A DNA stretch of 56,687 nucleotides from Thermoplasmata archaeon (GTDB taxonomy: Archaea > Thermoplasmatota > E2 > JACPAO01 > JAHFTW01), in assembly GCA_034667725.1 (NCBI GenBank), contig JAXDQS010000011.1:1-56687 (forward strand), in the 5' to 3' direction. Positions 15,265 to 18,524 of the stretch are shown here, piece after piece. The notes under the pieces were generated by a model. The model had not been told where the DNA came from. It did not search any database and worked only from the letters and a program-made list of their open reading frames with translations. Position numbers and translations under genes: made by a program. Every line of letters begins with the position of its first letter. Position 1 is the first letter of the stretch.

Positions 15265-16410
15265 ATGGTCGGCCGTTGCCTCGCCTTGCTTGCTGTTGCC
15301 GTCGCGTTCCTGCCGCTTGCCCTCCCGGCCAGCGCCCAGTCGGCGAACCCGCCCCACCTGGACACCCAGAACAACATCCTGTACGGCCACTGGGACGGCG
15401 GCGACCTGACCTACATGAACACGCTCGCGGTCGACAGCGACGACGCCAACTACGGCTCCGGCACCGTCGTCGGCGGCATCCCCACCGTCGTCACCGAGAT
15501 GACCTGGGACTTCGTGCTGACCCCCGCGCTGGCCGCCAACGTCAAGCTGGACACCTCGAAGGACGCGACCGCCACCATGTACATCGGCGGCAACGCGGCG
15601 GCCGGCCAGATGAGCATCGAGACCTCGCTGGTCTCCGACACCACCGTCGTGTGGACCGGCACCTCCGACGACTTCGAGATGACGCCGGGCACGGCCACGG
15701 ACTACACCACCGTGGTCGTGAGCGCCAAGCCCTCGGCCGACACCCTCCCCGTCGGCAAGCCGCTGCACTGGATCATCACCGCCAGCGGCGCCTCGACGGC
15801 AAGCTTCCTCGGCATGAGCGAAGGCCGCGGCCGCACCAACCTCGAGCTGCCCGTCACCAGCGCCGCCCCCGACCAGGTCGCCTCCGCCGACATCAAGTAC
15901 GGCACCTTGCCCGCCGGCCCCGTCAACCTCGACCTGTCCATCCTCAACAAGACCACGGCGACCTACCACTACAACTGGACCGCGCCCGCCGGCGAGCAGT
16001 CGATCAAGGTCGGCGCCACCGTCAAGGGCGGCTCCGTCCAGGTCCTCGTCACCGACAACGCCAACAAGACCCAGTTCGACCAGACCCTGACGGCCTCCGG
16101 CAACAAGACCGCCCAGACCAAGGGCGCCGCCAGCGGCCTGTGGCGCATCACCCTCCGCCTCGTCGACTACGAGGGCGGCCTCGACCTCGCCATCGACCCC
16201 GTCAGCAAGGCCGGCGGCACCACGGGGCCGTTCGGCGGCACCAGCGGCACCGGCGGCTCGACGGCCGTGGTCGGCGGCACCGGCGGCACGGGCGGCGCGG
16301 CCCCCGGCTCGACCGAGCAGCAAGGCACCAGCAACAACGCGCCCCACCTCGGGGTGGCGGCGCTGGCGTTGGGCCTTGCGCTCGCCGCGGCCCGCCGGCG
16401 GATTCACTGA
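15265..16410 (+). CDS. secreted/cell-surface protein with C-terminal sorting signal
   Basis: Signal peptide, Thr-rich beta body, G/T linker, APHLG + TM helix + RRR tail. Confidence 0.8.
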   Translation: MVGRCLALLAVAVAFLPLALPASAQSANPPHLDTQNNILYGHWDGGDLTYMNTLAVDSDDANYGSGTVVGGIPTVVTEMTWDFVLTPALAANVKLDTSKDATATMYIGGNAAAGQMSIETSLVSDTTVVWTGTSDDFEMTPGTATDYTTVVVSAKPSADTLPVGKPLHWIITASGASTASFLGMSEGRGRTNLELPVTSAAPDQVASADIKYGTLPAGPVNLDLSILNKTTATYHYNWTAPAGEQSIKVGATVKGGSVQVLVTDNANKTQFDQTLTASGNKTAQTKGAASGLWRITLRLVDYEGGLDLAIDPVSKAGGTTGPFGGTSGTGGSTAVVGGTGGTGGAAPGSTEQQGTSNNAPHLGVAALALGLALAAARRRIH

Positions 16411-16459
16411 CCCCCACCGGACCTGCTAAGTCCCCCTGGGACCAATCTATGGTTGTCCT

Positions 16460-17010
16460 GGGACGAGGTCCCGGGGCTTCCGTCTTCGGACGGCGACATG
16501 TGCAGGAAGGGCATGCATCGACCGCCCTTCAGGGTCTCCAACGTAAAGCGGGAGAGCCTCAACCTGGAATCCAGGCGCAAGCCGGGAACATGGGTTGGAT
16601 GGACTTGTCGTCCCTGCCTGCGGGCGGGGAAACCTGTCACCCGGGCCACGGTCCGGTGACTGTCCCGTGGGTGCGAAACCAGCGGGACACCCGGCTTCGG
16701 CCGGGATTCCTGTCACCAAGCCACCACGGCTTGCGTGGCGACCTGAGGGCGTTGAGCCCAAAGGCCTGTCCAGAAACGGGTGCAAGCCCGAGGATGGACA
16801 ATCATGCGCAAGCATGATTTCCTCGTAGCAATGCGAGGATTCCCGGTCACGGGCTTCGGCCCATGACGATGCCAGGCAGCAATGCTTGGCGCTGTGTCCA
16901 AAGAACGGGCTTCGGCCCAGGATTTGGACTGCCGCGTGGACGCAAGAAAGCGCGGCATCCCTGGCGCAAGCCGGGGTATCCCTATCCAACCGGGGGCTGC
17001 GCCCCGCTCA
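16460..17010 (+). ncRNA. large highly structured ncRNA of unknown class (ends approximate)
   Basis: About 18 hairpins; four C(UUCG)G loops and six GCAA loops; G-U wobbles consistent with the + strand; 10-bp long-range helix 16593-16602/16982-16991; no credible ORF. Confidence 0.85.
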
Positions 17011-17018
17011 ACACTCCA

Positions 17019-17047
17019 ACCAAAAAGGGAGAGAGAAAGGAAGAGGA
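17019..17047 (-). terminator. pyrimidine/U-rich archaeal terminator of dnaG
   Basis: Minus strand reads CCTCTTCCTTTCTCTCTCCCTTTTTGG just after the dnaG stop. Confidence 0.6.
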
Positions 17048-17063
17048 CTGAACGCGGGACTGC

Positions 17064-18524
17064 TTACTGCAAGTCGTCGCGGGTCAGGATTTCCACGGTG
17101 TCGGGCACCTTGGTGACGTTGCCCATCTTGACGCCGACGACGGTCGCGATCTTCTTCTCGGACGCGATGTCCAGCAGGCGCTGGGTGATGACGCCGTCGA
17201 ACACGACCGCGTGCACGCCGTCCTTGGAGCCCTTGAGGGTGTCGGCCAGCTCGCGCACGGCCAGCTCGCCCTGGAGGGTCTTGCCGGTGTCGTCCAGCAG
17301 GACCGCCTTCAGGGAACCCGACAGGTCGCCCAGGATCTGCTTGAACTGGACGCGGGGGTCGCCCTCGCGCGGCGCGGTGGTCGCCACCGGCTCGGTCGCC
17401 TCGGCGCCCTCGCCTTCGGCGGCGCCCTCGTCGCCCTCGCGGCCACGGCCGCGTCCGCGCCCGCGGCCACGGCCGCCGCGGCGGTCGTCGTCGCGGCCGC
17501 CCTCGCGCTCCTGGCGGGGCTCGCGCTCGGCGCGCTCGGGGCGGGCCGCGCCCTCGGGCTCGCGGGCCGGGCGCTCGCCGCGGTGCTCGCGGCCTTCGCC
17601 GCGGCCGCCGTCGCGGCCGTCGCGGCCGCCCTCGCGGCGCTCGCCGCCGGACTGGCGGGGCGACTCGGCGCCCTCGGCCGGCTTCTTGAGGACGATGCCC
17701 ATCTGGGAGGTGAACTGCTCGGCGGTGACCTTGTTCTTGAGGCACTTCATGACGAGCTTGTGGGGGAGCTCCTCGACCTCGCGGGTGGGCGGGGCGCGGG
17801 CGACGAAGTCGACCTCGCAGGTCTGGAGGATCTCCTTGGCGATGAGCTCGCCGCCGCGGTCGCCGTCGACGAAGATGATGGTGGTCTTCTCCTTCGTCAG
17901 CTCCTTGATCTCCTCGGGGATGTTGGTGCCCTCGACGGCAACAGCGTTCTTGATGCCGCACTTGAGGAGGTTGACGACGTCGTTGCGGCCCTCGACCAGG
18001 ATGACGGAGTCGCTGGAGTCGACGTTGGGGCCGGCGGGCAGCTTGGTGTTGCGGAACTTCGTGACCTCGGCGACCTGGACGGCGGCGCGGACCTCGTCGG
18101 CGATCTTCGAGGAGTCCTGGCCGGACGACTCGTTGATGGTGGCCAAGAGCTCCTTGGCGCGGTCGATGACCGACTTGCGGCGGGCCTCGCGGGTGTCCTC
18201 GAGGGCCGTGACGCGGATGGTCGCCTTGCAGGGGCCGATGCGGTCGATGGTCTCGATGCCGGCGGCCAGGATGGCCGACTCGACCTTGTCCAGGGCGGAC
18301 GGGAGCAGGATGGTGCCGGAGGTCTTGCCGCCGCGGGTCTCGACGTCGACCTCGACGCGGCCGATGCGGGCGGACTTCTGGAGGTCGCGCAGGTCGAGCT
18401 CGTTGCCGAGCAGGCCCTCGGTCTGGCCGAAGACGGCGCCGATGATGTCGGGCTTCTCGACCACGCCGTCGGCTTGGACGGTGGCGCGGATCAGGTACTT
18501 GGTTGTGCTAGGGTCAACGACCAT
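17064..18524 (-). CDS. dnaG: archaeal DnaG (primase-like, exosome-associated)
   Basis: GVVEKPDIIGAVFGQTEGLLG, LQKSARIGR, TOPRIM VEGRNDV and DGDRGG, FDGVITQRLLD. Confidence 0.97.
   Translation of the reverse strand: MVVDPSTTKYLIRATVQADGVVEKPDIIGAVFGQTEGLLGNELDLRDLQKSARIGRVEVDVETRGGKTSGTILLPSALDKVESAILAAGIETIDRIGPCKATIRVTALEDTREARRKSVIDRAKELLATINESSGQDSSKIADEVRAAVQVAEVTKFRNTKLPAGPNVDSSDSVILVEGRNDVVNLLKCGIKNAVAVEGTNIPEEIKELTKEKTTIIFVDGDRGGELIAKEILQTCEVDFVARAPPTREVEELPHKLVMKCLKNKVTAEQFTSQMGIVLKKPAEGAESPRQSGGERREGGRDGRDGGRGEGREHRGERPAREPEGAARPERAEREPRQEREGGRDDDRRGGRGRGRGRGRGREGDEGAAEGEGAEATEPVATTAPREGDPRVQFKQILGDLSGSLKAVLLDDTGKTLQGELAVRELADTLKGSKDGVHAVVFDGVITQRLLDIASEKKIATVVGVKMGNVTKVPDTVEILTRDDLQ

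Follow-up and report, generated by a model that had tools for sequence, protein, structure and literature searches.

The window analysed here, a 56,687-nt stretch of DNA from a Thermoplasmata archaeon, contains a gene-free gap in which two predicted hairpins, arms 1 and 2, carry nearly the same purine-rich internal loop. The question that this locus raises is what these loops are, and what kind of RNA would present them more than once. A preliminary description had read them, together with a third arm, as repeated loop E/sarcin-ricin-like docking modules of an RNA that grew by arm duplication. Its observation is largely right; the duplication holds, and the loop E identity does not. The explanation that we favour, and to which we give about an even chance, is that arms 1 and 2 would be duplicated rods of a young, lineage-specific plus-strand RNA and would share, by inheritance, a patch of stacked purines of the tandem-G.A type.

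The gap extends from 16411 to 17063 (653 bp) and hosts all three arms. It is flanked by convergent genes, namely a surface-protein gene on the plus strand (stop codon at 16408-16410), whose product is C-terminally anchored, and dnaG on the minus strand (17064-18524), the archaeal primase/exosome gene with Toprim domains. Public gene calls annotate nothing within 16411-17063. Among 5.8 billion protein clusters, the surface protein stands as a singleton, and its gene occurs in two public contigs only; the RNA there is 100% identical, so these contigs offer no population variation. A T5 run on the minus strand at 17018-17026, about 40 nt past the dnaG stop as read from the sequence, is likely the dnaG terminator, and 17010-17063 is therefore probably part of dnaG and not of the RNA. 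In the closest relative, a T-rich tract also lies immediately past dnaG.

The gap has one of two similar hairpins at each end, CUCC-AACGUAAAGCG-GGAG at 16536-16556 and CUCC-AACCAAAAAG-GGAG at 17014-17033. Both have A-rich loops of 10-11 nt, and the copy at 17014-17033 overlaps the presumed dnaG terminator. Regarding dnaG itself, the gene is split across two contigs near residues 330-380 in four congeners (G002, G005, G007 and G012), and query coverage in BLASTP is only about 60% in many close DnaG homologs, which suggests that assemblies break at a linker of variable or repetitive sequence.

The host RNA candidate covers about 16470-17010 on the plus strand, with unmapped ends, and consists of 18 predicted hairpins in series. 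Seven of the 18 caps are GCAA and four are UUCG, whereas neither tetraloop occurs in any cap predicted on the reverse strand. The fold of 16411-17063 reaches -339 kcal/mol (z -9.9) on the plus strand, compared with a z of -4.7 on the minus strand. Counting GNRA- or UUCG-capped hairpins with a stem of at least 4 bp, the gap has 10 on the plus strand and 1 on the minus strand. The mean over the 2.32-Mb genome (71% GC) is 0.41 such hairpins per 600 nt, and the gap is the densest site genome-wide. Its GC content is 63%, against 71% for the genome. Codon periodicity is absent (GC of 0.61, 0.63 and 0.66 by phase, compared with 0.97 at third positions of the neighbour genes), and A makes up 34% of unpaired bases but only 12% of paired bases in the host RNA fold. 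The host RNA is thus convincingly structured and non-coding, specifically on the plus strand. Moreover, the strand asymmetry of the tetraloops, the A-rich loops and the z of -9.9 together provide good evidence for RNA-level selection on plus-strand structure.

The RNA is presumably transcribed. A clear promoter was not found for it, the sole AT-rich box being CAATCTATG at 16443-16451, and the plus strand of the gap has no T-run. An Rfam scan of the window gave no match at the gathering score. With E up to 10, the only match was P24, a chance match that scored 14.5 bits where the gathering score is 100.

The second-densest site of tetraloop hairpins in the genome, C3:320492-320996 on the minus strand (L039), is a GGC/GAC-rich coding repeat that specifies a Gly/Asp/Ala-rich protein. 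It was rejected as an RNA candidate and illustrates a false positive of plain hairpin counting in DNA of 71% GC.

Arm 1 (16767-16800, plus strand; UGUCCA-GAAA-CGGGU-GCAA-GCCCG-AGGA-UGGACA) has a 6-bp outer stem, a 4x4 loop GAAA/AGGA, a 5-bp inner stem whose last pair is U.G, and a GCAA cap. Arm 2 (16896-16929, plus strand; GUCCAAA-GAAC-GGGC-UUCG-GCCC-AGGA-UUUGGAC) has a 7-bp outer stem, a 4x4 loop GAAC/AGGA, a 4-bp inner stem and a cUUCGg cap. Arm 3 (16930-16957, plus strand) comprises an 8-bp stem, a 3x3 loop GGA/AAA and one C-G pair beneath GCAA. The positions and letters given for the arms in the preliminary description are exact, and the GAA(A/C)/AGGA loop that it saw in arms 1 and 2 agrees with the isolated folds. 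Specifically, the minimum free energy (MFE) fold of each isolated arm is the structure drawn, at -16.4 kcal/mol (z -4.9) for arm 1, -16.1 kcal/mol (z -3.5) for arm 2 and -14.0 kcal/mol (z -2.6) for arm 3.

Arms 1 and 2, each of 34 nt, align with 27 identical columns and a score of 13.5, over a background with a mean of 3.3 and a standard deviation of 1.6. This score was reached by none of 2000 mononucleotide shuffles of arm 2 and by none of the 3286 other 34-nt windows of the 56.7-kb sequence, among which the best score was 12.5. Near-identical copies of the arms are excluded. Judged by sequence, arms 1 and 2 are clearly true paralogs. In contrast, arm 3 scores 4.0 against both, which is the background level. 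Its fold with the GGA/AAA loop is as drawn, but its grouping with the other two arms does not extend to sequence kinship; as far as the alignment tells, it is no paralog of arms 1 and 2 and resembles them only in its style of purine-rich symmetric loop.

The two paralogs have 15 helical steps each and differ by a 2-bp extension of the arm 2 outer stem, to which the 5' strand contributes AA and the 3' strand UU. This extension preserves both pairing and the length of 34 nt, and is the sole two-sided compensation between the arms. The exchange of GCAA for UUCG, which had been taken as internal covariation, is an exchange of caps only. Because the shared loop was inherited through the duplication, its two copies count as one observation. 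MAFFT places the AGGA strands of the arms out of register.

Duplication is not confined to this pair. A further hairpin at 16846-16867 on the plus strand (GUCA-C-GGGC-UUCG-GCCC-A-UGAC; -13.4 kcal/mol alone) is the closest paralog of the arm 2 core, and the direct repeat D2 matches 16849-16866 with 16905-16922 at 17 of 18 positions (94%). In this hairpin, UCA/UGA Watson-Crick pairs replace the purine oppositions GAA/GGA of arm 2, which indicates that the arm 2 loop is in helical register. Additionally, other units of hairpin plus linker are repeated across the RNA (direct repeats D1, D3 and D4). Growth of the RNA through duplication, as first proposed from the arms, is therefore well supported. 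A supposed family of UGUC...GACA hairpins was discarded, as GUC..GAC hairpins of at least 5 bp occur 1.8 times per kb per strand genome-wide.

The sarcin-ricin or bulged-G motif (eukaryal loop E) has the signature tHH-cSH-tWH-tHS-cWW (PMC3854523), and its highly conserved bulged G forms a cSH/tWH triple together with a U and an A that are conserved as well (PMC3854523; PMC8450098). A survey of the motif found UA and CC to be isosteric at the tWH place and non-isosteric changes to destroy the motif (PMC8450098). The arms resemble it in that a GAA strand faces A-G-N-A and an A.G pair next to the flanking helix is possible; the tHS A.G beside the outer stem could be supplied by A16794/G16773 and A16922/G16903, a match of sequence compatibility only. 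However, both arms read AGGA and not AGUA. G16793 and G16921 occupy the position of the conserved U of the tWH U.A pair, so the bulged-G/U.A triple cannot form. Furthermore, both loops are symmetric 4x4 in the MFE folds, compared with 4x3 in the motif, and have no bulged or extra nucleotide on the AGGA strand. With these two defining features missing, the loops should not be filed as loop E/sarcin-ricin, contrary to the identity first assigned to them.

The opposed bases are G16773.A16794, A16774.G16793, A16775.G16792 and A16776.A16791 in arm 1, and G16903.A16922, A16904.G16921, A16905.G16920 and C16906.A16919 in arm 2. Such a loop reads better as stacked purine pairs led by a tandem sheared G.A beside the outer stem, with a geometry that we infer from these oppositions. 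The likeness is to the tandem sheared G.A loop of the RNA 3D Motif Atlas (cWW-tSH-tHS-cWW): in both arms, 5'-GA-3' faces 5'-GA-3' beside a Watson-Crick pair (G16773 A16774/G16793 A16794 in arm 1; G16903 A16904/G16921 A16922 in arm 2). The catalogued loop is 2x2 and closed by Watson-Crick pairs on both sides, whereas the arms add an A.G and then an A.A or C.A opposition to make 4x4. The tandem G.A is missing in arm 3 (GGA/AAA).

The non-canonical stem of the Kt-7 K-turn is GAA/GGA, and the arms share with it this purine stack opening with G.A and A.G. The K-turn is defined by a 3-nt bulge plus G-A and A-G pairs (PMC5435971). The arms have the tandem GA but lack the 3-nt bulge on either strand in all registers tried. 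A kink is hence not expected, and the K-turn was rejected as an identity for these loops.

The predicted fold of 16470-17010 contains five symmetric internal loops of at least 2x2 (GAA/ACA, GA/AA, GAAA/AGGA, GAAC/AGGA and GGA/AAA), and every one of them opens, next to the outer stem, with a G on the 5' strand facing an A on the 3' strand. Such an opening is typical of natural RNA internal loops.

The pairing of the arms was also predicted within longer segments, with different assumed transcript ends. Arm 3 pairs as drawn with a probability of about 0.96 in each of the three segments folded, 16411-17063, 16470-17010 and 16760-16980. The corresponding values are 0.98, 0.85 and 0.19 for arm 2, and 0.09, about 0.7 and 0.19 for arm 1, with a range of 0.09-0.74 for arm 1 across the assumed ends. 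Both arms 1 and 2 can pair with themselves, and their sequences are nearly the same; the 5' half of arm 1 can therefore also pair with the 3' half of arm 2, and this cross-pairing is predicted for 16760-16980 (p 0.81). In the fold of 16411-17063, 16778-16798 pairs instead with 16985-17004 (p 0.77-0.87), and 16766-16771 pairs with 16488-16493, closing a 5' domain. According to these models, arm 1 is not secure in context and has two competing pairings.

The predicted alternative partner of arm 1 includes a palindromic 18-mer, CCGGGGGCTGCGCCCCGC, at 16990-17007. Six other exact copies occur in the genome (G000; C2:79410, C2:110166, C3:192769, C9:737, C10:110871 and C10:248926), and all six continue into a common GGG(N)CG(N)CCGCGC segment, which the RNA locus lacks. 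At least four of the six head a longer hairpin element between direct repeats of the flanks, and the RNA locus has only the first hairpin of the dispersed repeat. By its sequence features, the element looks like a small mobile (MITE-like) insert. Since 16990-17007 belongs to a repeat dispersed through the genome, the fact that it can pair with arm 1 is probably fortuitous.

Relatives of the RNA were sought at several levels. BLASTN with the 653-nt gap as query, run against 40 relatives of which 12 are congeners, gave only chance matches of 20-30 nt, and the RNA is missing from all 12 other genomes of the genus. The power of BLASTN was checked with a different structured RNA, C2:1987-2355, which was recovered in congener G004. 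The covariance model R1, built from a single sequence (16767-16978, 69 bp), returned nothing below an E of 0.03 from 31 other genomes of the family and 150 other genomes of the class; the best match was inspected and is unrelated. A loops-only pattern had 0 matches in metagenome and genome collections, and an exact 23-mer had 0 in a viral collection. The region downstream of dnaG in 24 relatives has neither a hairpin-dense stretch nor similarity, and the RNA is absent in the closest DnaG relative (93% identity). The names of the DnaG relatives assign the genome to Thermoplasmata within Thermoplasmatota, and not to Poseidoniia. What comes after dnaG in the closest relatives (L083 3608-3931, L010 and L012) is a T-rich terminator, with the promoter of a UPF0058 gene behind it. 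Their loci also lack a match to the 738-aa open frame that lies upstream of dnaG here. Synteny thus breaks at dnaG, which here faces the RNA and the singleton surface-protein gene. Since the RNA lies at this break beside a species-specific gene, it appears young or recently acquired. Within the collections searched, it is apparently an orphan of one species only.

Other hairpin-rich RNAs were encountered in the lineage. A separate candidate non-coding RNA of about 370 nt lies at C2:1987-2355 (G000) and at about 1000-1640 of L060 (G004:C1), on the minus strand; the two are 74.5% identical over 377 nt, and the candidate has no Rfam match at the gathering score. G021, from another genus of the family, has a hairpin-dense gap of about 700 nt (L073 930-1660, minus strand, G021:C10; z -5.3) with many UUCG/GNRA caps, flanked by the gene for a class II aminoacyl-tRNA synthetase and, in convergent orientation, a cupredoxin gene. 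No homolog of this gap was found in 31 family genomes, and it scores only 11.6 bits with R1, as an unrelated orphan. The RNAs of G004 and G021 are by-products of a scan for a triple cUUCGg pattern, the matches of which were mostly coding DNA. This lineage may be prone to orphan ornate gaps.

Several other explanations have to be weighed against duplicated rods with an inherited purine patch. The loops could be S-turn modules of the loop E/sarcin-ricin kind that dock protein or RNA, in which case the RNA might be a scaffold, a sponge or a self-assembling multimer. The GAA strand facing A-G-x-A does recall AGUA/GAA, both arms allow an A.G beside the flanking Watson-Crick pair, and seven GCAA caps in the RNA are potential docking partners; multimerisation is also known for large ornate RNAs (bioRxiv 10.1101/2024.12.08.627333). 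We nevertheless regard this explanation as very unlikely, since the G in place of the conserved U blocks the triple in both arms, the loops are 4x4 and not 4x3, and non-isosteric changes at the tWH place destroy the motif (PMC8450098); homologs that would show conservation of the loops were not found in the collections searched. It is somewhat less improbable, but still unlikely, that the arms as drawn are not native, and that arm 1 pairs through its 5' half with the 3' half of arm 2 or joins 16985-17004 instead. If arm 1 is paired elsewhere, its internal loop does not exist. Cross-pairing of the arms is lower in energy in the 212-nt fold (-116.1 kcal/mol for the cross-paired MFE structure and -112.1 kcal/mol for the all-local one), and the cross-pairing and long-range helices have the high probabilities given above. 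On the other hand, local hairpins form first in transcription, the all-local fold is the MFE structure with ends at 16470-17010, and the long-range partner is a dispersed repeat with a hairpin of its own. Moreover, the two-sided AA/UU change keeps arm 2 self-paired.

A more serious rival, although we still hold it to be less probable than the favoured explanation, is that the region is structured without a specific RNA function. It might be a recent pile of hairpins, or a 3' tail or insulator between the surface-protein gene and dnaG, with purine loops that are merely tolerated mismatches. Several features of the locus fit this possibility. The RNA begins 8 nt past the stop of a singleton gene, between convergent genes at a synteny break where the closest relatives have a T-rich terminator and the UPF0058 gene. 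It is missing in 12 congeners, though another non-coding RNA is detectable in a congener at 74.5% identity. Internal duplications and part of a mobile hairpin element occur within it, and another genus of the family has its own orphan gap, unrelated to this one and dense in hairpins. The strand asymmetry of the tetraloops, the A-rich loops and the z of -9.9 weigh against it by pointing to RNA-level selection. Likewise, a PHLG/PWLG-type anchor motif terminates three other open frames of the genome, and none of these is followed by a structured tail.

Under the favoured explanation, one hairpin would have been duplicated to give arms 1 and 2, with the internal loop passed on with the copy. The loop would consist of a tandem sheared G.A at the outer stem plus two more mismatches, with GAA/GGA as in a K-turn yet unkinked, and this purine patch would leave each arm a continuous rod of 15 steps with a non-A-form surface. 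From such a rod and surface, the most likely role suggested by the sequence would be structural or in recognition, through a patch on each of the two rods and with binding as a conjecture, and not that of an S-turn docking module. The two competing pairings of arm 1 and the orphan state of the RNA in the collections searched count against the favoured explanation. The absence from 12 congeners and the synteny break do so as well, in so far as they also fit neutral, recently made hairpin DNA. A bolder extension seems distinctly improbable to us: the RNA would be a functional gene newly born via serial hairpin duplication, and GAA(N)/AGGA would be a recognition site in two copies, for a protein or for its own GCAA caps, which it would recognise within or between molecules.

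As it stands, the shared element is a purine-rich internal loop of a common type, which was passed on by duplication within an RNA of one species. Should the purine patch prove to be a genuine recognition site, the locus would exemplify the way in which a new structured RNA acquires repeated binding surfaces by the duplication of arms, and if the newborn-gene extension were true, a rare orphan structured RNA would have been caught early in its evolution in Thermoplasmata. Two negative results are useful in themselves: the loops should not be annotated as loop E/sarcin-ricin, and paralogous copies provide neither independent support nor covariation. The host RNA is more interesting than the loop module, as it forms the densest cluster of stable tetraloops in its genome and is free of relatives in the collections searched. 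Large ornate RNAs such as OLE, GOLLD, ROOL and raiA are conserved across many species. The host RNA differs from these in that it was found in a single species, and it has no genuine match to them, to HEARO or to any other Rfam family even at an E of 10. It is nevertheless like OLE, GOLLD, ROOL and raiA in that it is about 0.5 kb long, non-coding and built of many tetraloop-capped hairpins, and lies between convergent genes.
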